A DNA stretch of 64,000 bases from a virus (taxonomy: Duplodnaviria > Caudoviricetes). The translations under genes were made by a program, and so were the position numbers. Below the pieces are notes generated by a model. That model made no database searches and was not told where the DNA came from. It was given only the letters and a program-made list of their open reading frames with translations. Positions 1 through 60,929 of the stretch are shown here, piece after piece. The stretch is taken from positions 1 through 64,000 of the IMG/VR virus record IMGVR_UViG_2608642293_000001, one strand, 5' to 3'. Positions within the stretch are counted from its first letter, which is position 1, and the number at the start of each line of letters is the position of its first letter.

Positions 1-50
1 TCAGCAATTACATCGCCTTTGGCTTGTATATAAGTTGCAGTCCATGGATT
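1..50 (-). pseudogene. cotJC: cotJC 3' fragment (start of it; continues left of window)
   Basis: Minus strand reads NPWTATYIQAKGDVIAD, matching the CotJC segment (B. subtilis-like ...GVPFTASYIQAKGDPIAD...). Confidence 0.9.
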
Positions 51-1671
51 CGCTTGAACTATCTAACTGCATGTTATCCAAGCAAAAAAACTTCACATCA
101 AAAATTTTGTTTGTGAAATCGCATGTTACTTTTTCAATTATATTTCTTAGTAGAGTTCGTTTTATATCTATATCATCAGTAGTATTAAAAGTTTTATTAA
201 AATCTATGAAACTTTGTATTAAATGTTTTATTTCTAAAATAGAATCCTTTAAATGGGCATGAGTTTCTTCGCTACTAGATAAGATTAACTTTAATTTATT
301 AACTTCAGTTGTCATTGCGGCAATTTGGGACCTATATATTTTTTTTACATCTTCCATTTCTGTTTTTGATAATTCATTAACGAGGTTTATAACCTGTTTT
401 TCTTTTTCAATTATTTGTGATTTTAAATTATCAACTATCTGTTTATCAGAATTTTTTAATAAATCATTCAGTTTATCATTATATGTCTTTAATATGATAT
501 TCTTATTATAGGTTTGTATTGTTTCTACTATAATAGGGTCAACAATGTCACATCTCAAGTTAGGAGCTGCACATCTATTAGTTAAATACTGCTTTTCTTT
601 ATTAGAACAAACATAATAAATATAACTCTTACCATCTTTATTTTTAGAATTATATTTTATTACCATATTTGAACCACATTTTCCACACTTTAATAGTCCA
701 GAAAACAAGGCATTATTAGATCCAGTGCCACTTCTATTTGATATTTGTTTTGATTTTTCAGCATTAGAGTCGAGTTTCTTTTGTACTCGAAGCCAATCAA
801 TTGATGGGATAATTCCAGAATGACCTGAGATGGCAACTATTATATTATCTTTATCAGTTTTTTTGTTATAAGTTAAGTATCCATTTCCATTAGCTTTACC
901 GTATACGTTAAAGTTTTTTGATTTTAGGTATTCGTGTGTAGATTCACTCGATTTGACATACAAACTACTTCTTAAAATTCTTTTTACACCAGTCAGTTCA
1001 AAGTTTACTCCAGTTTTGCTTTTATATCCATTATTGTTTAAATCTTTTACAACATTTAGAATTGAGCCTTTAGAAAGATAGTTATTATATATAAACTTTA
1101 TTATTTCTAATTCTTCATCGATAGGAATTAATTTAACAAAAGATTTTTCTTTCATTTCTTCATTCATATAATTAACTTTTTCTGAAGCATATCCAAGAGG
1201 CAGTTGCCCTCCAGACCATTTTCCTAACTTTGCAAGCTGAAGCATGTTATCTTTTACTCGTTCTGCAATTGTTTCACGTTCTAATTGGGCGAATACAGAA
1301 GCTATGTATATCATCGCACGGCCAGTAGGTGTACTGGTATCAAATCTTTCTTTAATGCTTATGAAATCGACACTATATTTTTGCAGTAATTCAAGTATTG
1401 AAGAAAAATCCGCAACATTACGTGAGATTCTATCTAATCTATAACAAATTAATACACTGATTTGATTAGATTTAATATCATTAAGTAATCTTTGGAAATT
1501 AGGTCTATTAACATTTTTACCACTAAAACCTTCATCTTCGTAGATTATGTATTCCAATTCCTCGTTTTTAAAATAAACCTCGCAATGATCTTTACATAAA
1601 TCAATTTGATTCTCAACACTTTCACCTTTGCCAGTAAAGACTGATTTTCTAGAATAGATAGCTATTTTCAT
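1..1671 (-). CDS. Large serine recombinase (integrase 1); last 13 codons are read from host cotJC DNA in another frame
   Basis: IAIYSRKS catalytic Ser motif, YEDEGFSG, YRLDRISR, recombinase domain, Zn ribbon CGKCG...C...C, coiled coil. ATG at 1671 follows a GAAGGTG RBS. Confidence 0.97.
   Translation of the reverse strand: MKIAIYSRKSVFTGKGESVENQIDLCKDHCEVYFKNEELEYIIYEDEGFSGKNVNRPNFQRLLNDIKSNQISVLICYRLDRISRNVADFSSILELLQKYSVDFISIKERFDTSTPTGRAMIYIASVFAQLERETIAERVKDNMLQLAKLGKWSGGQLPLGYASEKVNYMNEEMKEKSFVKLIPIDEELEIIKFIYNNYLSKGSILNVVKDLNNNGYKSKTGVNFELTGVKRILRSSLYVKSSESTHEYLKSKNFNVYGKANGNGYLTYNKKTDKDNIIVAISGHSGIIPSIDWLRVQKKLDSNAEKSKQISNRSGTGSNNALFSGLLKCGKCGSNMVIKYNSKNKDGKSYIYYVCSNKEKQYLTNRCAAPNLRCDIVDPIIVETIQTYNKNIILKTYNDKLNDLLKNSDKQIVDNLKSQIIEKEKQVINLVNELSKTEMEDVKKIYRSQIAAMTTEVNKLKLILSSSEETHAHLKDSILEIKHLIQSFIDFNKTFNTTDDIDIKRTLLRNIIEKVTCDFTNKIFDVKFFCLDNMQLDSSSESMDCNLYTSQRRCNC
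43..72. other. Left att junction of prophage 1 (core CATGGATT, phage arm 55-72)
   Basis: The core is repeated at 59117-59124. Arm 55-72 is a 15/18 inverted match to 59101-59118. Confidence 0.9.
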
Positions 1672-1723
1672 TAACAACACCTTCAATTCTAATTATTATA
1701 GATATGCAATTTAATATGTACTT

Positions 1724-11516: not shown

Positions 11517-12194
11517 ATGAGAAAAGAAACTATAACAATTAGCGAAAGAAATTTAATGTTTTGCGTAGGAGGCCAATTATTTAGTCAAGCACCAAACAGG
11601 CAACCTAGAAAAGCTGAAATAATAATGCAAAAGATTAAAGAAAACTTTAGAAAAGAAGCTTACAATGATAACGAATATTACACAATTATGGTAAGCGAAG
11701 AAGATAGAGGGGTATATAAATATATTGATAAGTTACTTAAAAACATACCAGAATTTGTAGAATTAAATTTATCTCAAATTGAGTTTGACAAAAATATATC
11801 AGTAGATGATGAAAATAGACCAAAATTCTCATTTAGCACTAGATATGATAAATATGATGCTGAAAGTTGGAAAAGCGATTTCATTGATTTAGATGCTTTT
11901 ATAGGGAATGTGGTGAGAAATATATATACCATGATAGAGAGTGGCATAGATTGCTTTTGTTGCATACATGGAAATAGCGATAAATGCACCGAGTGTATTG
12001 TAAATCCTAAATACAAAATAAATTATGAATGCGGCAGAGAACCTAAAGGAGAATATACATTTGCTTGTAAATTTGATTGTTATAAACATAGATATATATG
12101 TTGCGAAGAATGTTCAGATAAAAATAGTTGTGTAAAAAAATGTGATTGTAATTCAAAAGAATGTGGACTAGTAATTAATAAAATAACTAAGTAA
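11517..12194 (+). CDS. Hypothetical protein with Cys-rich C-terminus
   Basis: More than 10 Cys in the last 80 aa. Confidence 0.7.
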   Translation: MRKETITISERNLMFCVGGQLFSQAPNRQPRKAEIIMQKIKENFRKEAYNDNEYYTIMVSEEDRGVYKYIDKLLKNIPEFVELNLSQIEFDKNISVDDENRPKFSFSTRYDKYDAESWKSDFIDLDAFIGNVVRNIYTMIESGIDCFCCIHGNSDKCTECIVNPKYKINYECGREPKGEYTFACKFDCYKHRYICCEECSDKNSCVKKCDCNSKECGLVINKITK

Positions 12195-15284: not shown

Positions 15285-16322
15285 ATGGAATATGTTAATG
15301 AAATTAATATTAATGAAGCTGTAATTCATGTGCTAGATAGCAATGGAGAGGAAGCAATATTAAATGAATATAGTTTGGAATTAGACGAAGAGACGTATAT
15401 GTTTTTAAACAAGCATATTGAAAAGTGTTTAAAAGATGAAGAGCTTAGATATGCAAAGTTCAATCAAGAAAGAAGTATTGTAAAAGAAGTGGTTCAAGAT
15501 TATCTAAAAGGAATAGATAAAGATTTAATAAATTCATCCAAAGAGTTAGCCAAGCAATTATTCATGATAATGTTAGGCAATGCAAATATTCCAAGCGCTG
15601 ATTTAATAGTTGCATCAATAACTACAGATCAAGGCCCTATGATTGCAATACTTAAATTAGATTATGTTAAAAACTTTACTCATGAAGTCCAATTCATTGA
15701 TAAAAAAGTAGGAGTTGGGATTGTACCACAAGCAGCAGGACTTCCAGGCAGAGGACAAAAAATACAAAAGGCTGCATTCATTAAACCAATTAGGGAAGAT
15801 GGAAGGTACAATTTAATGGTTTTAGATAAGCAAAAAATCAGTAAAGAGGATGAATATGGAGCCAATTACTTTATAAATACCTTTTTAGGTGCAAGCATTG
15901 TCACAAATGAAAGAGATATGACAAAAACTTTTGTAAAGGCAGCTGAGAACTGGACCAGAAAAAATATTACGGATGATGCAGTAAAAGCGGAAGAGATTAG
16001 AAGCACTATAAAAACTAAGTTAAAAGAAGAAGATACAATAAATATAGATGAATTCTCAGAGATATTGTTTGTAGAAGATCCACAAATGCGAGAAGACTTT
16101 ACAAGCTATATAAAACAACAAGGATTAAACGATGAGGTGTTAGTGGACAAGACTTGGGTAGAAAAGAAACTAAAGAGGACAAGACTTAATATAGATAAGC
16201 AGATAGATTTATACATCAATGAAGATACTTATCATGATTCTAGCAAATTTGAAATAGTACCAAATGGTGATGGAACTATAAACATGGTAATTAAGAATGT
16301 TATTAACTATATAGAAAAGTAA
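15285..16322 (+). CDS. Nucleoid-associated protein (NdpA/YejK, 37-kDa family)
   Basis: INEAVIHVLD N-terminus, IAILKLDY, KIQKAAFI, YFINTFLG. Confidence 0.8.
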   Translation: MEYVNEININEAVIHVLDSNGEEAILNEYSLELDEETYMFLNKHIEKCLKDEELRYAKFNQERSIVKEVVQDYLKGIDKDLINSSKELAKQLFMIMLGNANIPSADLIVASITTDQGPMIAILKLDYVKNFTHEVQFIDKKVGVGIVPQAAGLPGRGQKIQKAAFIKPIREDGRYNLMVLDKQKISKEDEYGANYFINTFLGASIVTNERDMTKTFVKAAENWTRKNITDDAVKAEEIRSTIKTKLKEEDTINIDEFSEILFVEDPQMREDFTSYIKQQGLNDEVLVDKTWVEKKLKRTRLNIDKQIDLYINEDTYHDSSKFEIVPNGDGTINMVIKNVINYIEK

Positions 16323-17677: not shown

Positions 17678-17984
17678 ATTAAATAGCAAGTTCATAACAA
17701 CTGAGGACCTTAATAATTTCAATAATCTTATGGATGAAATAGATATATTAAAAGACAATGACCATGCAAAAGCTTATACACTTCATAAAAAGGCTCTTAG
17801 ACAATATGACAGATGGAGCACAATTTTATTTGATATAAGAACTGGAGAAAGTAAAGGAATAGCCAAAAATCCAGCATTAAAGGATAGAGTAGCACAAATA
17901 TTAAAAATGATAGATAATTCTTATGTTACAGCTAGAATGGTTTGGGGCAAGGCTAAAGACGATATTACAGGAGGCAAGTATTGA
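17670..17984 (+). CDS. Hypothetical protein
   Basis: GGAGGG RBS; coupled to recU. Confidence 0.6.
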   Translation: MNELNSKFITTEDLNNFNNLMDEIDILKDNDHAKAYTLHKKALRQYDRWSTILFDIRTGESKGIAKNPALKDRVAQILKMIDNSYVTARMVWGKAKDDITGGKY

Positions 17985-17985
17985 T

Positions 17986-18411
17986 ATGTATGAAGATATA
18001 AAACAAAGATTGAGAAACTACAAAAAAATATTAGCGAAGAAGAATGAGTATGAACTTCAAATAAAAGAACTTGAAGAGTGTATAGGAATACCAGAGCAAC
18101 CACAGGGAGAAGCTACAGGGAAGACTTATAAGATAACAAGTGTTGCGGAGAATCAAGCTGTAGAATTAACTGAAAAGAAATCAAAACTAGAGCAATTGGT
18201 TAAGTTTAACAAGAGAGAATGTGAACATATAGAGAATGCTTTAGATGCATTAAAGGAATGGCAAAGACAAGCTATAAAACTAAAGTTTATTGATGGAAGA
18301 AGGATAGAGAGCATTTGTGCTATTATGGATAAATCTCAAAGGACAATAAAAGAATATATTGGTAGAGGATTAAAATTAATGGATGAAATTCTGAAAAATG
18401 ATCTAGAATAG
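17986..18411 (+). CDS. ArpU/RinA-like late transcriptional activator
   Basis: Coiled coil plus sigma-region-4-like HTH (ALDAL...AIKLKFIDG); last gene of the early operon. Confidence 0.8.
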   Translation: MYEDIKQRLRNYKKILAKKNEYELQIKELEECIGIPEQPQGEATGKTYKITSVAENQAVELTEKKSKLEQLVKFNKRECEHIENALDALKEWQRQAIKLKFIDGRRIESICAIMDKSQRTIKEYIGRGLKLMDEILKNDLE

Positions 18412-18520: not shown

Positions 18521-19174
18521 GTGGAGAAAAATAATATGAATTATTACGAAATATTAGGGGTAGATAAAAATGCTGATTCAGATCAGATTAAAAAAGCATA
18601 TAGACAGCTTGTTAAAAAGTATCATCCGGATGTAAATAATGCAACTAATGCAAATACATTTTTTAATCTAATCCAAGAGGCATATAGAGTATTAAATGAT
18701 GAAAAACTAAAAATGGATTACGATAATAGAAATAATTATGTACATAAGGAAAGTACAAACAAAACTGATAACTACAATGATAAAAGTAAATATGGGTTTG
18801 GAGAAGAATCATCAGAAGAAGAAGCAATAAGACAACAGGAAGGAAAAAGGAGCATATTTGTTAAAATACTAATAGTATTGCTAAAAATATTATTAGCGTT
18901 ATTTGTACCTATTATTTCTTTCTGTGAATATGTTTCAACTGTTGGAGCAGGAATAGTAGCGCTTATTTCAAAAGTTATAATGTTTGTATTTCTTGCATGT
19001 ACAATAATGGGAATTGTTGAGGTTTACAAAGGTGAGGTAGGTGGATGGCTTACTTTAATTATGTCAATTGTAGTTGCATTTGTAGCTTTTTGCTTTCCAT
19101 ATATAATAATTATGGTACCTGTAGCATTAGGGTTACTGAAAGAAAAAATTAGAAGTTTTGTATTTAATATATAG
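18521..19174 (+). CDS. J-domain (DnaJ-like) membrane protein, moron
   Basis: NYYEILGV...KKYHPDVN...IQEAYRVL plus three hydrophobic segments. Confidence 0.9.
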   Translation: MEKNNMNYYEILGVDKNADSDQIKKAYRQLVKKYHPDVNNATNANTFFNLIQEAYRVLNDEKLKMDYDNRNNYVHKESTNKTDNYNDKSKYGFGEESSEEEAIRQQEGKRSIFVKILIVLLKILLALFVPIISFCEYVSTVGAGIVALISKVIMFVFLACTIMGIVEVYKGEVGGWLTLIMSIVVAFVAFCFPYIIIMVPVALGLLKEKIRSFVFNI

Positions 19175-52375: not shown

Positions 52376-52549
52376 GTGACTAAAAAAGTAGGCAAGTATG
52401 AGTATGAAAAAGCAGAAACAACATTTAACATTAACGATGAACTTGATATGGAAATATATAAATTTTTGCTAGAGAATAGTAAAGTTATAGGTAAAAGCAA
52501 TTATATAAAACAACTTTTGTATGAAAAAATGCTTAAGAGTAAGGAATAA
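52376..52549 (+). CDS. 57-aa ribbon-helix-helix-like protein (not in ORF track)
   Basis: GTG start after GAGGTG; ...TTFNINDELDMEIYKFL...GKSNYIKQLLYEKM; hairpin terminator 52535-52570. Confidence 0.6.
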   Translation: MTKKVGKYEYEKAETTFNINDELDMEIYKFLLENSKVIGKSNYIKQLLYEKMLKSKE

Positions 52550-52664
52550 ACCTTACTCTTATTTTTTTTTATAATTTTTTAATAAATTTCAGAAACTTTA
52601 GGAAACTTTATTAAATTTATTGCATAGAATAAACCATAAGATAAATGAAAAGGAGCTAGAATTT

Positions 52665-53555
52665 ATGAAAGATTATGAAATTTTAGGTATAGACATAGGA
52701 AATTGCACAACTAAGACTAGCACTGGAATAATATTCGATTCTAAAATTACAGATATTGAACCACTCGGAAAATCAGACATGCTATTCATGGATAAAAAAA
52801 CTTACTGGTTAGGAGAGGGCAATTATGATACCACCTATAAGAAAGTGGATAAACAGAGTTATTTAAAATTACTTTATGGAGCAATAGGGTTGAGCGAACA
52901 ATCTAGTAATAAAATCATCAACAATTGTATAGTTTTGGGACTGCCTTTAAGCCAGTTTAAGGAAGATAAAATGTCTTTAGTTAATATGGTTTTAGCTAAT
53001 AGAGAAAAAATTATAAGAATTAACAATACAGAAAAACAAATCATTATACAGGATGTTGAAGTGTTTCCAGAAGGCGTTGTAACGCTGCCAGATGATTATG
53101 AGGGAATAGTAATAGATATAGGCGGTAGGACAACAGATTGTGCTTTAGTGGTTAACGAGAGAGGTAGAAGAAGGGTTTTAAATCCTATAAGTCTGCCTAC
53201 CGGAACTATAAACTTATACAAAGATTTCATTAATAAGGTCAACAATAAATTTAGTTTAGATTTAGGGATGAATGATGCTGAACGGTTAATGTTGAATGGT
53301 TTATATTTGGATGGAAAGAGGACAAATATTAATTTTGCGGTTGAAGTTTATAAACAGTTTGTAGATAGTCTAATAAGCCGCTTACAGGTTGAGTATTCTT
53401 TGAGAACTAATCGCATTAGTCTTACAGGTGGGGGAGCATTATTGGTTTACGAGCAAATTAGAGATAGATTGGGTGATGGAGTAACCCTTCAGGATAGACC
53501 TACACTAGCAAATGCGAGGGCATATTATGAATTGGGGTGCAGCATATGGCAATAG
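52665..53555 (+). CDS. parM: ParM/StbA-family actin-like ATPase
   Basis: GIDIGNCTTK (phosphate 1), VFPEG, VIDIGGRTTD (phosphate 2), LTGGGA, ANARAY. Confidence 0.9.
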   Translation: MKDYEILGIDIGNCTTKTSTGIIFDSKITDIEPLGKSDMLFMDKKTYWLGEGNYDTTYKKVDKQSYLKLLYGAIGLSEQSSNKIINNCIVLGLPLSQFKEDKMSLVNMVLANREKIIRINNTEKQIIIQDVEVFPEGVVTLPDDYEGIVIDIGGRTTDCALVVNERGRRRVLNPISLPTGTINLYKDFINKVNNKFSLDLGMNDAERLMLNGLYLDGKRTNINFAVEVYKQFVDSLISRLQVEYSLRTNRISLTGGGALLVYEQIRDRLGDGVTLQDRPTLANARAYYELGCSIWQ

Positions 53556-53737
53556 TAAAAGCAGTCAGCTTTAAGAATAAAGAGCAGGATTTATTGGATC
53601 ATGTAGGAAAAAGAGATTTCAGTTACTATGTTAAAGATCTTATAAGAAAAGATATGAACGAAAAACTATCAAGCAAGGTACCTGGCAGAAACGAAAATAT
53701 TACAATTAAAAAAAGAAATATTAATTTTGAATTTTAG
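53546..53737 (+). CDS. ParR-like ribbon-helix-helix adaptor
   Basis: Overlaps the parM stop; VKAVSFK...FSYYVKDLIRKDM. Confidence 0.7.
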   Translation: MAIVKAVSFKNKEQDLLDHVGKRDFSYYVKDLIRKDMNEKLSSKVPGRNENITIKKRNINFEF

Positions 53738-53918
53738 GAGGTTTATTATGAAAAAATCAAATAAAAAAGAATCAAGTGAAAAGCCTGAAGTAAATATAAC
53801 TGATATTATAAAAGATTGGACTCAGAACTCTGAAATATTTAAGACTATGGTACCTAATATGAGTTTTAATGATTTGTTATTGTACTGCATAGAAAAGTTC
53901 ACCATTTTACCTAAATAA
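53727..53918 (+). CDS. Hypothetical protein (likely start MKKSNK)
   Basis: AGGAGG RBS; terminator 53930-53959. Confidence 0.6.
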   Translation: MNFRRFIMKKSNKKESSEKPEVNITDIIKDWTQNSEIFKTMVPNMSFNDLLLYCIEKFTILPK

Positions 53919-54213: not shown

Positions 54214-54651
54214 ATGGAGGTTTATGAAATGAAAGAAATTACTATGAGTATTCATGATTTCATGGAAATTCAGAGAGGAAACCTTACATTAGAGGAATTA
54301 GAATTAGATTTAGATACTTTAGACAAAATAGCAGGAGAAATTCTCCAGAATCCTGAACTAAAAACGGCAGTTATTACATCAATAGCCTATATGAATATGC
54401 ATATGCGTGTTTATGCTGATGAAATGGACCAATTAAGAAGTGCTAAAGGTGAAATTGTAATAGTATTGCAAGTATGCATTGTTATTATATGTATTGTCAT
54501 GTGCTTGTTAGAAATCGCAAAATCCTTGATTGGAAATAGAAGTTCAGATGTAGGAAGTATTGTGATGAAATATCTTGCTGCTACAGTTGGAACTTGTTTA
54601 GTACCGAGAGTATTTACATGGATAGCACATTTATGCGGAATTAATGTATAA
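54214..54651 (+). CDS. Membrane protein with VirB2/TrbC pilin-like C-terminal half
   Basis: Internal VYA/D processing-like motif followed by two hydrophobic helices joined by a short loop. Confidence 0.6.
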   Translation: MEVYEMKEITMSIHDFMEIQRGNLTLEELELDLDTLDKIAGEILQNPELKTAVITSIAYMNMHMRVYADEMDQLRSAKGEIVIVLQVCIVIICIVMCLLEIAKSLIGNRSSDVGSIVMKYLAATVGTCLVPRVFTWIAHLCGINV

Positions 54652-54662
54652 GGAGTTTAATT

Positions 54663-54929
54663 ATGAATGAAAGTATATCTAATGCAATTCAAAACGGATT
54701 TGATAAAGTTTCTGATAGTATAAAGGATAAAATTTCTGGCTTTATGATCTATATTTTAAAATCTATAGGAAATTTTGCTTTAGAGAGTTCGGATATAGTT
54801 TGTCCGATAATTTGTTTAATAGCATTAGCTTTTTATATAGGCGGTAATAGAAAGGCTGGTAAATATGTTTCAGGATCATTTGTATTATATTTTATACTTC
54901 AAGCACTTAGAGGTTTTATAAAAGCATGA
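54663..54929 (+). CDS. Small two-TM membrane protein
   Basis: Hydrophobic hairpin; stop overlaps the ATPase start (ATGA). Confidence 0.7.
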   Translation: MNESISNAIQNGFDKVSDSIKDKISGFMIYILKSIGNFALESSDIVCPIICLIALAFYIGGNRKAGKYVSGSFVLYFILQALRGFIKA

Positions 54930-57271
54930 AAAGCCTAAAATTATCTAACTATTTTGAATTAGTGAAACCAACCTACCGTTATATTAAAATTACAAGCCAT
55001 AAATCGATTCGCAATTACAATTCTGATAACTTAAGCAAATTTATTGCCCTTACCTACAAAAGCCTTGACAGAAGAATAAGAAAAGAACAAAAGAAGATAT
55101 TCTTCGAAACAACCTTTAAAATTTCCTACATTATAGATATTCAAAATAATGATTGTAGTTTTTATTTCTTGGTTCCTGAAGTGTATTTAAATATGTTATT
55201 TGAGAAAATAACAGAGATATGGAATAAAGCTACTGTTGAAGTTCTAGAGGATCCAATTAAACCTATCTCGGACAATGCTGAAATGTACCAATTATCATAC
55301 AAAAAAGAAGACGCTCTAAGTTTAAAGGTAGATAAAAAATCAAACGAACCTTTAAATTCTATTTTATCAGTTATGGATATTTTAAAGGATGATGATAGAG
55401 TAACAATAATTTATAATTTCTTACCTATAAGCCAGTTTTCATGGTTAGAAAGATATTTAGGGACTATAGAAAAATTAAAAGAAAATAAAATGGTTGATAA
55501 AAAGCAGACATCAATAGAATATTTGATTAAAACTACTGTACTATTTGTTTCAAAAATGATAACAGATTTTCTAAATGTTGTTGATGATTTCACAGGAGGA
55601 AACCCAGAACAGGAGAAAAAAAGCCTTTATGATGTTGTTATAGGGTATATGCAGAACAGAAAAGAATTGTCTCCAGCTACTAAGAAAAAGAAGGAAAGTA
55701 CTGTCCTAGATACTCAAATTGTTGTATTTTCAGAAAGCAAAGATAATATACGAAAAACTAATAATGCTTTGAGTACATGCCAAGCCTATAGGGTTTTGGA
55801 TGAAGACAACGAACTTATGTATAAAAAAGTAAAAAAGAAGATAAGAAAAAAATTCAAGGATATAGAACAAACAGATTATAGAGTAGATTACAATACTATG
55901 AGTGTAGAAGAAGTAGGGAGCACTTGTTTACAAATTCCAGCAAGAAGCCTTTTATATCAATTTAAATTGAAATTTGTTAATGTAGAAGAAGTTCAAATAC
56001 CCGAGAAACTAAGGCAAGGTTACATTACATTAGGAACCAATAAATTCAAAGGGAAAACCTACGAAACTTACTTTGAAGATCATAAAGATATAGGTTCATT
56101 AGGTTTAGTGTTGTTGGCAAGGCAAGGCGGCGGGAAAACAACTTACTTATGCCATTATTCTAAAGATTGCTTATCTAGAAAAGAAAGTATAGTACACATA
56201 GATTTTATTAGAAACAACGAAGCTAGTAAAACAATTGAAAAAGTAGTGCCTAAAGAAGATCTAATAATATTAGATTTAAGCACAGAGGAAGGATTACAAG
56301 CTCTAGCATATAATGAGATTGAATTTACAGAAAATATATCTTTATTTGAAAGGCAGGCTCTAGCTAATAAAAAGGCTGAAATGACAATACAATTAGTAGA
56401 TAGCATAAATGATAATGGAGAACCTTTAAGCCCTAAAATGAGTCGTTATTTAAGTGCTGCAGCTAATGTTATATATATTAAGGAAAATACTACCTTGAAA
56501 GATGTTATAAGATGCCTACAGGATTATAAGTTTAGAGAAGAATCAATTAATACTTGTATTCCAGATGTATTAAAAGAGGAATTTGAAGAAGAAATACAAG
56601 CTTTAGAGGAATTAGATGAATACACAAAAGCTACAAAAGATAACCCAAGCCAAAAATGTGGAACTAAGGATAGTAAAATAGAAGGGATTTTGGACCGTAT
56701 AAGTTTACTAATGAGAGATTTTTATTTAAAGAAGATGTTTAAGAAGAATCCGAAGAATAATATAAATTTCGCTAAAGCCACAGAAGAAGGGAAAGTTATA
56801 TTAATTCGTATGCAACAAAGTAAGTTTAAGGACTATGCAAAGAATGTTATTACTACTTTCTTCATTACTAAAACATGGCTGGCATGTGAGCTTAGAGGGG
56901 ACTTATCCGAGACACAACGAAGAACTCATATAATTATAGATGAAATAAGTCAAACTAAAACAGCGGAAAGATTTTTAGAAAGTAAATTAACTCAAGGTAG
57001 AAAGTTTGGATTTAAACCAGTTCTAGCGCTCCAATATTTAGATCAGCTAGATAAGAAGACAATATATTCACTTAAAGGTGCTGGATGCAGTTTTATGCTG
57101 CTTAAAGGTGCTATAAAAGAAGACTTTGAGTATTTTAAAGATGAAATAGATAACTTTGAATATGAAGATTTAAAGGAAATGAGCAAGACATATAAATATC
57201 CATCGTTTAATATTATCCAGTATTCAGATGGAGTTACAAGTTTTATAACAGAATTGCCTAAACCAGTTTAA
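54926..57271 (+). CDS. VirB4/HerA-FtsK superfamily P-loop ATPase
   Basis: Walker A ARQGGGKT, Walker B HIIIDE, QGRKFG arginine finger, ALQYLDQL. Confidence 0.85.
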   Translation: MKSLKLSNYFELVKPTYRYIKITSHKSIRNYNSDNLSKFIALTYKSLDRRIRKEQKKIFFETTFKISYIIDIQNNDCSFYFLVPEVYLNMLFEKITEIWNKATVEVLEDPIKPISDNAEMYQLSYKKEDALSLKVDKKSNEPLNSILSVMDILKDDDRVTIIYNFLPISQFSWLERYLGTIEKLKENKMVDKKQTSIEYLIKTTVLFVSKMITDFLNVVDDFTGGNPEQEKKSLYDVVIGYMQNRKELSPATKKKKESTVLDTQIVVFSESKDNIRKTNNALSTCQAYRVLDEDNELMYKKVKKKIRKKFKDIEQTDYRVDYNTMSVEEVGSTCLQIPARSLLYQFKLKFVNVEEVQIPEKLRQGYITLGTNKFKGKTYETYFEDHKDIGSLGLVLLARQGGGKTTYLCHYSKDCLSRKESIVHIDFIRNNEASKTIEKVVPKEDLIILDLSTEEGLQALAYNEIEFTENISLFERQALANKKAEMTIQLVDSINDNGEPLSPKMSRYLSAAANVIYIKENTTLKDVIRCLQDYKFREESINTCIPDVLKEEFEEEIQALEELDEYTKATKDNPSQKCGTKDSKIEGILDRISLLMRDFYLKKMFKKNPKNNINFAKATEEGKVILIRMQQSKFKDYAKNVITTFFITKTWLACELRGDLSETQRRTHIIIDEISQTKTAERFLESKLTQGRKFGFKPVLALQYLDQLDKKTIYSLKGAGCSFMLLKGAIKEDFEYFKDEIDNFEYEDLKEMSKTYKYPSFNIIQYSDGVTSFITELPKPV

Positions 57272-57283
57272 AGACCAAGATAT

Positions 57284-57523
57284 TTAATTATCCTGGTCTT
57301 CCTCATTATCGAAATTATAATGTTGTTTGAAGTAGTGTAGGATTCTGTAAGAGCTTATTCCAAGTTCTTTAGATAACCTGAAAATCACGTTTACAGTTGG
57401 GTTACAAGCGCTAGGGTGCTTTTCCATTTTAGATAGATAAGATTTACTAACCCCAATTTTAAGAGCCAATTCAGTTAAAGAAAGTTCTTTTTCAGTTCGC
57501 TTTTCCTCGAGCAGGCAAACCAC
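57284..57523 (-). CDS. XRE HTH regulator
   Basis: LSLTELALKIGVSKSYLSKMEK. Confidence 0.85.
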   Translation of the reverse strand: MVCLLEEKRTEKELSLTELALKIGVSKSYLSKMEKHPSACNPTVNVIFRLSKELGISSYRILHYFKQHYNFDNEEDQDN

Positions 57524-58693: not shown

Positions 58694-59119
58694 TCATAGA
58701 ATATTATATTCTTTTAATAACTTATATTTATCTCTGCTTACATTATTAGAACCATTTTCCCAACTGCACCAAGCTGTAATGCTTATATTAGTGAGATTAC
58801 ATACTTCCTTTATAGATAAGTTATTTTGTTTTCGATAGTTTAATAACTTTTCACTAGAGTTATTTGTTTCCTCCAAATATGTATCGTAAAAATATTTCGT
58901 ATCAAGATTGAAGTGAAGAGCTAATTTTTGTGAGATTTCTCGTCCAGGTAATTTTCTACCTAATTCAATATCTTTTATACATGATCCTTTACTAAAACCA
59001 ACTATTTCAGCCAATTTATCTTGAGTTAGGTCATTTTTTAATCGATGAAATTTTAACTTATCACCTATAGTTTTGCCAAAATCAAACATATTAATTTTAT
59101 ATGTAGTTAGAATGTTCAT
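58694..59119 (-). CDS. Twin XRE-HTH protein whose ATG lies in the att core; in frame with integrase 1 after excision
   Basis: Two HTHs (LTQDKLAEIVG...IELG; LSIKEVCNLTNIS...WENG); ATG is the CAT at 59117-59119. Confidence 0.88.
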   Translation of the reverse strand: MNILTTYKINMFDFGKTIGDKLKFHRLKNDLTQDKLAEIVGFSKGSCIKDIELGRKLPGREISQKLALHFNLDTKYFYDTYLEETNNSSEKLLNYRKQNNLSIKEVCNLTNISITAWCSWENGSNNVSRDKYKLLKEYNIL

Positions 59120-59124
59120 GGATT
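59101..59124. other. Right att junction of prophage 1
   Basis: Core CATGGATT at 59117-59124 and phage arm 59101-59118. Confidence 0.9.
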
Positions 59125-59274
59125 TCCTGTTGCATCTGTATAAAATACTGCTTTTCTATGATCAGCATAATGCCCAGCAAGTCCTGCTTTTTTTATCTCT
59201 TCTATAGTTGCATTTTCCATAAGTTGATATACCATTGTAGCAATTATTTCTACATGGGCCATTTCTTCTGTTCC
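59119..59274 (-). pseudogene. cotJC: cotJC internal fragment (52 codons) between the two prophages
   Basis: GTEEMAHVEIIATMVYQLMENATIEEIKKAGLAGHYADHRKAVFYTDATGNP, containing the EExxH Mn-catalase motif; joins in frame to WTATYIQAKGD at the left edge. Confidence 0.95.
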
Positions 59275-60929
59275 GTTGACTTAAATGCAGAATTTCCGAA
59301 ATCTTTTCTTTCAAGACTAGAACCGATTGGGACTACTGTTAAAGAATTATTATCACTATCCCAAACTACGAATTTAACAACACTAGATATAAGTCTTTTT
59401 TTATCTTCAAAAGTTTGGGTGAAATCATAGAATTTTTTAAAATTATCATATATATCAAGTATTTCAGAAATATCTTTCTTTATATCAAGGATAGTATCAT
59501 TTTCTGTTTTTAATTTAATAATATTATCTTCCAATTCTTTGTTTTCTTTACGCAGTTGTCTTATTTCATTCTCATAAGTATCAATCATTTCTTCTTCGTT
59601 CGATTTGGCGACCCGCCTTGATAAATTACTAATCATTTCTTTATTTTCAGATATTTTTTTAGTTAACTTAATTATTAAATCATTGTTATTAGTTTTTACA
59701 GCAGCTCTTTGCTTAAAATCTAGATAGGTGTTCATAATCTCGTCTTCAGTCATACTCTTAATTCTATTAACAACATAATCTTCAGCATCATATGCATTTA
59801 GTGAAGTGTTATCACATCTATTTCCGGCTTTATTCTTCAAATTGCAGGTGTAGTACCTGTATATACTTTCAGTACCATTAATAAGTTTATTAAATTGCTT
59901 TCTAGGAGCCATACTAGAACCACAATGCCCACAAATGACCAATCCACTTAAAAGTGCATTTATACTAGTATATTGCCTATTAGATGCTTTTAATTTAATT
60001 TCTTCACAAATATCTTGACATTTAATCCAATCCTGGCTGCATATTATTCCAGGATGGTCACCTATAGATATTAACCAATCTTCTGTAGGCGCAAAGCTGC
60101 CATTTTCTTTTCTTCGATTATAGGGCATTATGCCATTGACACCATTGGCATATTCTCTTCTATAAATTTCACAACCTTCATCTTTAAAGAAATCAAGAAT
60201 TAAATTATCAGCTATAACATAAACTGGATTATTTATCATTTGCTTAACGAGCTCTCTTGAAAAAACGCGTCCTTTACGGCTGTAAATACCTTGATTTTCT
60301 AATGTCAAACTAACTTTTTGAAAACTTTTATATTTTTTAAATAACTCAAATACTAATTTCACAGTTTTAATGTCGTTTTCTTCAATTTGGAGTATATGCT
60401 TTTTTCTACTTTTTCCTCTTAAATCATTATTTTCAACTTGAATAGATATATAGCCTAAAGGAGCAGGTCCACCTAGCCATCTACCAGTTTTACTTAATTC
60501 TCTAAGATTGTCTTGTATACGTTCCGCTATGGTTTCTCTTTCAAGTTGTGCAAAGGTAGCAGATATATTCATCATAGCTCTTCCCATTGCAGTAGAAGTA
60601 TCAAATTGCTCTTTAATACTTACGAAGGAGACATCAAATTTATCTAAAACATTAAGAGTATTAGTGAAGTCTGCAACATTTCTGGAAATTCTATCAAGTC
60701 GATAACAGATAAGATGGGTAAAATATTTATTTTTAATATCTCTCATAAGTTTTTGAAATTGAGGCCTGTTTGTATTGCCTCCAGAAAAGCCTTCATCCTC
60801 ATATACTTCATATTCTGCGATATTTAGAACATTTTGGGCATATTTAATACACATATTAATCTGATTTTCTATAGATTCTCCCTCTTCTGTAAATTTACTT
60901 TTACGAGAATAAATTGCAATTTTAGACAT
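59250..60929 (-). CDS. Large serine recombinase (integrase 2); last codons read from cotJC DNA
   Basis: IAIYSRKS, YEDEGFSG, YRLDRISR, CGHCG Zn ribbon; ends TEQKKWPM* inside the cotJC fragment. Confidence 0.97.
   Translation of the reverse strand: MSKIAIYSRKSKFTEEGESIENQINMCIKYAQNVLNIAEYEVYEDEGFSGGNTNRPQFQKLMRDIKNKYFTHLICYRLDRISRNVADFTNTLNVLDKFDVSFVSIKEQFDTSTAMGRAMMNISATFAQLERETIAERIQDNLRELSKTGRWLGGPAPLGYISIQVENNDLRGKSRKKHILQIEENDIKTVKLVFELFKKYKSFQKVSLTLENQGIYSRKGRVFSRELVKQMINNPVYVIADNLILDFFKDEGCEIYRREYANGVNGIMPYNRRKENGSFAPTEDWLISIGDHPGIICSQDWIKCQDICEEIKLKASNRQYTSINALLSGLVICGHCGSSMAPRKQFNKLINGTESIYRYYTCNLKNKAGNRCDNTSLNAYDAEDYVVNRIKSMTEDEIMNTYLDFKQRAAVKTNNNDLIIKLTKKISENKEMISNLSRRVAKSNEEEMIDTYENEIRQLRKENKELEDNIIKLKTENDTILDIKKDISEILDIYDNFKKFYDFTQTFEDKKRLISSVVKFVVWDSDNNSLTVVPIGSSLERKDFGNSAFKSTEQKKWPM

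Follow-up and report, generated by a model that had tools for sequence, protein, structure and literature searches.

We analyzed a compact three-gene module found in the first 64 kb (hereafter, the window) of a 108,873-base provirus record, IMG/VR record IMGVR_UViG_2608642293_000001 (Caudoviricetes). The module occupies positions 54,214 to 57,271 of the window and encodes two small membrane proteins, orfA and orfB, and a soluble ATPase of 781 amino acids (aa). We conclude with high confidence that it is the clostridial version of a phage module known from the gp31-gp32 region of Bacillus phage SPP1 and, in a larger form, from phages 0305phi8-36 and SPO1, and that it is neither a remnant of conjugation nor a known defense system. 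The best overall explanation, which we hold with moderate confidence, is that of a conserved accessory phage module in which a membrane-anchored VirB4-type motor would move a macromolecule, phage DNA being the leading candidate. An initial annotation of the window had proposed an undescribed spore-entry or inheritance system for these genes, with defense as the alternative.

Gene structure and selection

The first gene, orfA (54214..54651, plus strand), was annotated with 145 aa. Since a GGAGG sequence is present at 54216-54220 and most of 20 homologues open with MKEITMS, its probable true start is the ATG at 54229, which gives a protein of 140 aa. The gene seen by the initial annotation is real; its start at 54214 probably is not. 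It is followed on the same strand by orfB (54663..54929, 88 aa, two hydrophobic helices), with an AAGGAG sequence 11 nucleotides ahead of it, and by the ATPase gene (54926..57271), whose start overlaps the orfB stop in the sequence ATGA. Both the coordinates and the overlap confirmed the earlier description of three tightly linked genes encoding two small two-helix membrane proteins and a 781-aa ATPase.

The three genes of the module are genuine and intact, and strong purifying selection acts on them. The ratios of nonsynonymous to synonymous substitution rates (dN/dS) against the close relatives L027 and L005 were, respectively, 0.06 and 0.12 for orfA, 0.03 and 0.08 for orfB, and 0.05 and 0.04 for the ATPase; in the comparison with locus L028, dS was saturated. 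This selection agrees with the earlier view of the module as too small for conjugation yet intact.

Sequence and fold of the ATPase

The ATPase matched phrog_5156 (function unknown), a large protein family of phages and phage-plasmids, with an E-value of 5e-102, residues 5-763 aligning to profile positions 16-754 of 824. Its Pfam matches were AAA_14 and, marginally, TrwB_AAD_bind (23.8 bits versus a cut-off of 20.5, residues 622-719), and the curated VirB4 families CagE_TrbE_VirB and AAA_10 were not matched. Searches of NCBIfam and PADLOC (E <= 0.1) gave no matches to the ATPase, and a direct sequence search of the PDB returned nothing useful. Among 52 aligned relatives (24-83% identity), Pfam matches were found to AAA_14 in 25 proteins, to TrwB_AAD_bind in 19 and to DUF87 in three. 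At the sequence level, the ATPase is set apart from the curated VirB4 families.

G403 and K404 of the P-loop GGGKT and D672 and E673 of the Walker B motif HIIIDE (residues 668-673) are invariant in all 52 relatives, as are K255, E329, R537 and R591. Thus, the Walker A and B motifs listed by the initial annotation are intact. As to its arginine finger, R537 and R591 are invariant, but neither is assignable to this role without a hexamer. A hydrophobic (membrane) segment was looked for in the ATPase and is absent.

An AlphaFold2 model of the ATPase, built from the 52-sequence alignment, had a predicted local distance difference test (pLDDT) score of 89.5. The top Foldseek match of the whole model was full-length TrwK/VirB4 of R388 (E-value 4.5e-13, 893 columns). 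For the C domain (residues 357-781), the best match in VIA-align was the Thermoanaerobacter VirB4 structure 4ag5_A (Z 27.9, root-mean-square deviation (rmsd) 3.6, 338 residues aligned), followed by DndH-C (Z 26.7), TrwB (Z 25.8) and HerA (Z 24.4), with the FtsK motor at Z 15.8-16.2. Because the C domain dominates the match lists of the whole protein, residues 1-356 were folded separately, and the resulting N domain model had a pLDDT of 92.2. This domain matched TrwK/VirB4 7o42_A with Z 15.6 and rmsd 3.3 over 239 aligned residues, placing residues 12-347 on 34-423. In a ranking over 48,161 chains made with no Foldseek pre-selection, TrwK/VirB4 came first, the second match scored 9.0 and all others 6.9 or less; the top 11 Foldseek matches of the N domain were all TrwK. 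As modeled, the ATPase has the two-domain VirB4 architecture and not just a TrwB/FtsK-like C-terminus, so that the VirB4-like assignment of the initial annotation now extends to both domains by fold. The hallmark of type IV coupling proteins, an N-terminal membrane anchor combined with an all-alpha domain, was not found in the ATPase, the N domain of which is VirB4-like.

The two small membrane proteins

In an alignment of 24 relatives, orfA has a long charged leader and then a stretch of weak hydrophobicity, with a conserved V/A-Y/F-A motif at its end. Next come two hydrophobic helices with a short polar loop between them, a pattern that is conserved in the same alignment. We found no matches for orfA in Pfam (E <= 0.1, including TrbC PF04956 and T4SS_pilin PF18895), in PHROG (E <= 0.01) or in PADLOC (E <= 0.1). 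Profile comparison by hhalign gave P 0.035 over 92 columns for the TrbC-like pair and P 0.021 over 21 columns only for the gp31.1 trio, and the protein atlas placed orfA near a Maff2 cluster and near a cluster with TrbC in 14%, both at 0.88, below the trusted value of 0.9.

Proteins in the same position in related modules were also compared with known families. Membership in phrog_5422 is common to SPP1 gp31.1, PBC1_037, TP-84 gp47 and, in pCLK, the protein encoded ahead of the ATPase homologue. The pCLK protein in the orfA position, which its record also calls TrbC/VirB2, exceeded the cut-off of Pfam TrbC/VirB2 (28.5 versus 27.9 bits), TP-84 gp47 matched Pfam TrbC with 23.7 bits, and 0305phi8-36 ORF204 matched T4SS_pilin with 19.6 bits, under the cut-off. 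The term 'VirB2-like', which the initial annotation had applied to orfA, is well founded for the family position, where relatives match TrbC/VirB2, and suggestive for orfA of the window, where the signals are weak. The first small protein is plausibly pilin-like. In pCLK, a large Clostridium plasmid (locus L025, 8576-15103), the TrbC-like gene and the ATPase gene occur as a pair alone, with conjugation genes absent within 9 kb; this pair adjoins genes for an AAA_21 ATPase and an HNH protein that resemble a defense pair.

The two hydrophobic helices of orfB, the second small protein, enclose a GNRKAGKYVS loop that is conserved among 20 aligned relatives, in all of which G61 and K67 are kept. 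For orfB, there were no matches in Pfam, PHROG or NCBIfam, and its one PADLOC match was at chance level (E 0.028). Sequence, hhalign and atlas searches detected no relatives of orfB outside the clostridial modules: the hhalign probabilities were 0.2% against SPP1 gp31.2 and 0.5% against the TrbC-like pair, and the atlas gave no leads to named families. Judged by its position, orfB is a possible VirB3-like anchor.

Relatives in phages and plasmids

A tblastn search with the window ATPase matched 94 phage records (83 from Bacillus, 5 from Geobacillus, 2 from deep-sea thermophilic phages, 2 from Lysinibacillus, and one each from Clostridium and Terrisporobacter) and 50 plasmids (32 from Clostridium, 16 from Bacillus, and one each from Alicyclobacillus and Methylomagnum), and MOB-suite classified 42 of these 50 plasmids as non-mobilizable. 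The only Clostridium record of 40-60 kb that was inspected, the C. botulinum C/D plasmid p2 (p2CbBKT12695), contains phage structural genes. When the ATPase of phage 268TH003, which is 95.6% identical to the product of SPP1 gene 32, was used as the query, 109 phage records were matched, including SPP1, SPO1 gp27.4, SP8, CP-51, PBC1, phage G and 0305phi8-36 ORF201. The family is spread over unlike lytic and temperate phages (SPP1, SPO1, G, Tsamsa and TP-84), and the protein collections contained 604 ATPase relatives among the candidates scored, with 798 clusters at 50% identity. The same gene order, with a small upstream protein, small membrane proteins and an overlapping ATPase start, was observed in phiCp-D, TPDSL_ph2, TP-84, PBC1, 268TH003, SPP1 and p2CbBKT12695.

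For locus finding, the profile of 52 ATPases had no stretch that was conserved enough, a single protein yielded three genome and three viral loci, and a closer alignment yielded 21 viral loci. In 11 of these 21 loci, the record ends less than 2 kb past the ATPase, although some of these ends may be contig ends. In temperate relatives, the module is located at the end of the late/cargo arm, beside immunity or integrase genes or host DNA. Its right-hand neighbors include radical-SAM and V-ATPase genes in locus L006, and a GIDA-family gene and others in locus L007. Since these attachment (att) sites differ and involve non-sporulation genes, an att site in a sporulation gene is no feature of the module, contrary to the co-occurrence considered by the initial annotation. 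No conjugation genes were found in the flanks of any relative locus inspected. Relatives are carried by phages of both lytic and temperate lifestyle as well as by phage-like plasmids, which bears out the view that these modules are not decaying remnants of conjugative elements. In viral contig L041 (7514-10738), a 1074-aa protein encoded approximately 3 kb past the module matched Pfam RdRP (E 3.8e-17); polymerases of this type are unusual in phages.

The system is not an undescribed one, as the initial annotation had supposed, since members of the family were described in 2012 and 2018. SPP1 gp32 is reported as a non-essential 836-aa protein with no membrane segment, expressed from the early PE5 promoter, and HHpred showed its C-terminus to resemble TrwB, VirB4 and FtsK (Godinho et al. 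2018, Viruses 10:705, PMC6316719). An inversion in SPP1 disrupts ORF 31.2 and deprives gene 32 of its promoter, and a trans-membrane translocon was proposed to be formed by gp32 together with gp31.1 (three predicted membrane segments) and/or gp31.2 (two segments) (PMC6316719). For 0305phi8-36, a 'DNA translocation operon' was described with a relaxase-like orf200, a coupling ATPase (orf201), a VirB6-like orf203 and an MreB/actin-like orf207 (Pathria et al. 2012, Bacteriophage 2:25, PMC3357382). The same report lists gp27.3, gp27.4 and gp27.9 as SPO1 counterparts, finds growth unimpaired by deletion of orf200-207, and suggests cell-to-cell DNA translocation in biofilms (PMC3357382). Our literature searches, supplementary files aside, returned no experimental function for any member of the module family, and a 2026 paper on SPP1 cell biology (PMC13212656) mentions none of the terms gp32, gp31, gene 32, VirB4, translocon and ATPase. 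The present work adds a VirB4 fold for the N domain, a connection between the partner family and TrbC/VirB2, and the conserved upstream small protein. It also adds how often ParM accompanies the module in clostridial elements, a host-range comparison made against a control, and estimates of selection.

Upstream small protein and linkage to ParM

Upstream of the module, the window encodes ParM, an actin-like partition ATPase (52620..53555, plus strand; Pfam ALP_N, E 2.4e-13; phrog_691 'partition protein', E 2.2e-42), and a 66-aa protein (53537..53737, plus strand) whose gene overlaps that of ParM. The initial annotation had read this pair as parMR. ParM was confirmed, and the presumed ParR is a small protein that matched phrog_14312 (E 5.5e-9), and also phrog_8400, phrog_4223 and phrog_17574. 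Three of these families (phrog_14312, 4223 and 17574) are common to the 66-aa protein and to SPP1 gp31, PBC1_036 and TP-84 gp45, each of which is encoded directly ahead of the module in its own phage. By inspection, we read the 66-aa protein as a putative ribbon-helix-helix protein. A second small open reading frame (ORF) of the phrog_4223 type is located at 52376-52549, just upstream of parM, so that a protein of the gp31-like type is encoded on either side of parM. Around parM and upstream of orfA, no convincing array of iterons was found, the only repeat being a doubled GAAACTTTA at approximately 52590-52612, ahead of parM. The 63-aa ORF between the 66-aa protein and the module (53727..53918, plus strand) is kept in the 98%-identical relative L005 and gave no matches in Pfam, PHROG, NCBIfam and PADLOC scans.

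We compared 26 distinct clostridial-type loci including the window, after merging L004 and L010 with L005 or the window, L009 with L006, L008 and L029 with L007, and L043 with L042. ParM or another actin-like protein is encoded inside the fetched flanks of 17 loci; in 12 of them, the actin-like gene precedes the ATPase gene by 1.06-1.47 kb and has the same orientation. The nine loci that have no actin-like gene include some with short flanks. The co-occurrence with parM raised by the initial annotation was thus found, with parM often close to the module. This link is not obligatory, as SPP1, PBC1 and TP-84 are without ParM in the stretches inspected. In SPO1 and 0305phi8-36, an ALP_N protein is encoded upstream and a Replic_Relax protein downstream of the ATPase. 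In locus L035 (7775-11938), the module is followed by genes for a small resolvase, a RepA_N plasmid initiator and ParM, and this combination makes the element probably a phage-plasmid.

Host range

Three distant members of the family, the window ATPase, the SPP1-type ATPase of 268TH003 and SPO1 gp27.4, were used as host-range queries and matched 94, 109 and 146 phage records, respectively, counts in which related phages are not independent samples. The host genera were Bacillus, Geobacillus (including deep-sea phage D6E), Lysinibacillus, Alicyclobacillus, Brevibacillus, Clostridium and Terrisporobacter, with the addition of one Microcystis record. Apart from Microcystis, these genera form endospores. 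Outside the spore-forming Firmicutes, the only matches were this Microcystis phage record and, among the plasmids, one from Methylomagnum.

In contrast, the large terminase of SPO1, searched with the same settings as a control, matched 958 records (345 from Staphylococcus, 277 from Bacillus, 69 from Enterococcus, 55 from Listeria, 26 from Lactobacillus, and others), and 495 of them were from phages of Staphylococcus, Enterococcus, Listeria and Lactobacillus. The endolysin of the window, used as a query, also reached phages of Enterococcus, Lactobacillus and Lactococcus. Since both proteins reach phages of non-sporulating Firmicutes, the absence of the ATPase from such phages is not due to a gap in the collection or in sensitivity. 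SPO1 gp27.1, another control query, is itself limited to Bacillus, and the terminase was used instead. Measured against this control, the restriction to phages of spore formers anticipated by the initial annotation holds in the phage collection, apart from the Microcystis record, but the trait common to the hosts need not be sporulation. At the genome level, phrog_5156 was found in 11 of 401 genomes (E <= 1e-20; five matches spanning more than 700 of the 824 profile positions) and SpoIVA in 323 of 401. As all 11 genomes contain SpoIVA, an outcome with a chance of about 1 in 10, this cross-tabulation has no power.

Prophage setting

According to PHROG and Pfam scans, the module is part of a complete siphovirus-type prophage, which we call prophage A. 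From the left, it comprises a serine integrase (1-1686, minus strand), an S24-type repressor, replication genes, and terminase, portal, capsid and tail genes. Its right part includes an endolysin of the ordinary phage type (46495-47280), secreted wall-binding-repeat proteins, ParM, the 66-aa protein, the module and three helix-turn-helix (HTH) genes on the minus strand. The secreted cargo proteins upstream of the module carry hydrophobic N-termini of their own. Among the prophage A ORFs scanned (54 by PHROGs; 12 + 21 by Pfam), no relaxase, VirD4 or VirB6-like protein was found, in agreement with the initial annotation, which had recognized no relaxase or VirB6-like protein.

The first of the three HTH genes before the prophage end (57284..57523, minus strand) is convergent with the ATPase gene and encodes an HTH_3 regulator (Pfam HTH_3, E 3.5e-10); a gene 91% identical to it is placed after the module in locus L027. 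A hairpin between these convergent genes (57271..57300; RNAfold, -12.6 kcal/mol) is a possible two-way terminator. It was not flagged by our terminator scan because it lacks a T run, and the scan gave no clear terminator with a T run past the ATPase. A promoter scan was uninformative (38 sites versus 42.7 expected).

Past the HTH genes, there is a 48-aa Mn-catalase (cotJC) fragment (59116-59262), followed by the serine integrase of a second prophage, prophage B (59250-60929, minus strand). When RNA reads from three runs labeled with the same species were mapped, only positions 59117-59275 were covered, with unlike sequence running on at both sides. This interval, which separates prophage A on its left from prophage B on its right, is the cotJC fragment (59117..59275, minus strand; Mn_catalase). 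Since the reads stop at 59117 and 59275 with loose ends, their source strain was without both prophages, and both junctions are marked. The right junction of prophage A is therefore at 59117, which is 1.85 kb beyond the ATPase stop and agrees with the distance of about 2 kb from the right att given by the initial annotation. The two prophages, each with its own large serine integrase, are arranged in tandem in cotJC, approximately 158 bp apart.

Several other genes of prophage A were observed. A 225-aa protein (11517-12194) matched Pfam Tad5, a type I Thoeris inhibitor (E 5.9e-45), and is a candidate anti-defense gene product. A 345-aa protein (15285-16322) matched the NA37 nucleoid-associated protein (E 4.4e-76; phrog_1974), and plasmid p2CbBKT12695 likewise encodes a 'nucleoid-associated protein' a few kb upstream of the module. 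Next to the gene of a sigma-factor-like regulator (17923-18411; phrog_36; phrog_1740, E 7.8e-7) is that of a protein combining a DnaJ domain with some four hydrophobic segments (18521-19174).

Possible roles of the module

In the mechanism that we favor, the two small membrane proteins, one of the pilin-like VirB2/TrbC type and the other a two-helix protein in the VirB3 position, would recruit the soluble ATPase to the cytoplasmic membrane. The ATPase would form a hexameric VirB4-type motor, and ATP hydrolysis would move a macromolecule at or across the membrane. The substrate would be phage DNA, alone or in complex with protein, and the purpose would be to position this DNA, to secure its inheritance or to transfer it; the motor would work with the small upstream protein and, where present, with the ParM filament. 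The genes and their order, the fold, the conservation and the host range are shown by our data; that the ATPase is recruited to the membrane and forms a hexamer, what it moves and in which direction are inferred. Phage DNA is judged the most likely substrate because of the conserved protein of PHROGs 4223, 14312 and 17574, the frequent ParM or actin-like neighbor, and the nickase in SPO1 and 0305phi8-36; the TrwB_AAD_bind matches in 19 of the 52 family members were also counted toward a DNA link. On these grounds, we tentatively assign the module a role in DNA handling, at somewhat less than an even chance.

Several observations weigh against this explanation. VirB4 proteins are known as assembly and pilin-extraction motors rather than DNA pumps, so that the fold argues equally for an action on the pilin-like protein or on DNA, and a VirB4-specific family is absent from the 25 Pfam families listed, out of 26 matched, for the 52 relatives. 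The upstream small protein could be a mere operon regulator, and the ParM neighborhood could come about because accessory genes are placed together. Of the ParM-bearing phage records found, only phiCp-D is among the ATPase matches, as their sole Clostridium phage; the others, including four Clostridium phages and Clostridioides phage pCD5401_3, are not. Neither orfA nor orfB has significant similarity to SPP1 gp31.1 and gp31.2 (hhalign 2.2% and 0.2%), their presumed equivalence coming from position and topology, and the Replic_Relax nickase that directly follows the ATPase in 0305phi8-36 and SPO1 has no counterpart in the window.

A more specific version of the DNA-handling role, which we regard as rather unlikely, is a phage-owned delivery device made up of the module, the putative DNA-binding upstream protein and the ParM-type filament. 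Its VirB4-type motor, held by the two small partners at the cell membrane or at the septum of a sporulating cell, would carry genomes that are not integrated, such as those of lytic phages or phage-plasmids, into the forespore, a daughter cell or a neighboring cell. Such a device would explain the range limited to endospore formers, the dispensability in rich laboratory culture and the virospores of the SPO1 type. The entry of lytic phage genomes into spores is an old open question, for which this gene set is a concrete candidate that can be deleted in Bacillus subtilis. An integrated prophage, however, needs no device for forespore entry, which counts against the spore-entry idea of the initial annotation. 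A 2026 report that SPO1 forms virospores, in which its ParM gene 27.9 is named as a possible aid to entrapment (PMC12991052), is context and not evidence about the module.

Superinfection exclusion, or another form of defense, would assign the ATPase complex the task of blocking or expelling competing phage or plasmid DNA early in infection at the membrane. We give this a low probability. It would fit the membrane location and the non-essential, early character of the genes in SPP1, for which exclusion was listed by the authors among the likely roles of the early accessory genes (PMC6316719). It would also fit the position in temperate relatives between lysis/cargo and immunity/integrase genes, which is the usual place of conversion genes, the likeness of the C domain to HerA (Z 24.4) and DndH (Z 26.7), and the AAA_21 and HNH pair beside the pCLK genes. 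The defense alternative of the initial annotation nevertheless found no PADLOC family match, as the ATPase and orfA had none at E <= 0.1 and orfB was at chance level (E 0.028). A nuclease, NADase or other effector partner is absent from the module, and the N domain has the VirB4 fold and not the HerA barrel. Exclusion genes are normally small and lineage-specific, and one large ATPase family across unlike lytic and temperate phages would be unusual for them.

Alternatively, the ATPase might extract the VirB2-like protein for a short surface fiber or export a phage protein, serving cell contact or the release of an envelope-active enzyme. The two-domain VirB4 fold, the TrbC and T4SS_pilin matches of the partner protein in relatives, and the tailspike-like early gene after the ATPase in SPP1 and 268TH003 are consistent with this, as is the fact that VirB4-driven pilin dislocation is the known activity of the class. 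We nevertheless consider export less probable than exclusion. The module lacks a VirB6-like platform, a VirB8-like protein and a wall hydrolase, the secreted cargo proteins of the window have hydrophobic N-termini of their own, and no Gram-positive type IV system is known to build a VirB2 pilus. By far the least probable explanation is a decaying remnant of a conjugative element carried with no function. Only three parts resemble a type IV secretion system (T4SS), and 42 of the 50 matching plasmids are non-mobilizable, as such a remnant would have it; however, the dN/dS values of 0.03-0.12 for all three genes, the catalytic residues invariant in 52 of 52 relatives, the same compact arrangement in the strictly lytic phages SPP1, SPO1 and PBC1, and the absence of conjugation genes from the flanks of the inspected loci all argue against decay.

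The module is large as a family (798 clusters), strongly conserved and present in the well-studied Bacillus phages SPP1 and SPO1. Should its role prove to be exclusion or export, this would still be, going by literature searches alone, the first function for a phage-encoded VirB4-type motor.

Comparison with known systems

The SpoIIIE/FtsK pumps belong to the same ATPase superfamily and are the source of the idea of DNA movement at the septum. Their match to the window ATPase is much weaker than that of VirB4, Pfam FtsK_SpoIIIE was not matched, and the ATPase has no N-terminal membrane domain. The HerA- and DndH-type defense ATPases are similar in the fold of the ATPase domain, as given by the Z scores above. 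In contrast to them, the window ATPase has another N domain, no PADLOC match and no effector partner, its neighbors being membrane proteins and HTH regulators.

Among T4SS components, VirB4, VirB3 and VirB2 (TrwK, TrwM and TrwL of R388, and the Thermoanaerobacter VirB4) provide the closest parallel, since both ATPase domains match VirB4 best. In T4SS gene clusters, virB3 is directly upstream of virB4 and virB2 precedes virB3; the module likewise has a small membrane-protein gene directly upstream of the ATPase and a pilin-like gene before that. Unlike a T4SS, it contains no VirB6, VirB8, VirD4, relaxase or hydrolase, and it is phage-encoded, including in strictly lytic phages.

The operons of 0305phi8-36 (orf200-207) and SPO1 (gp27.3-27.9) encode an actin-like (ALP_N) protein, small proteins and an ATPase of the same family, in the order seen in the window. 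The 0305phi8-36 operon differs by a 286-aa protein called VirB6-like by its authors, which had no Pfam matches in our scans and has no counterpart in the window. The authors regarded its ATPase as a coupling protein (TraG/VirD4-like), whereas the folds obtained here are VirB4-like.

The gp31/gp31.1/gp31.2/gp32 genes of SPP1 differ in belonging to a strictly lytic phage without ParM, while the window copy is located in an integrated prophage beside parM, and early expression and dispensability are known for SPP1 only, not for the window copy. The two modules nevertheless share the phrog_5156 ATPase, which gave a full-length tblastn match at 22% identity and has no membrane segment in either phage, as well as the gene order, the ATPase start overlapping the preceding stop, and an upstream small protein of the same PHROGs.

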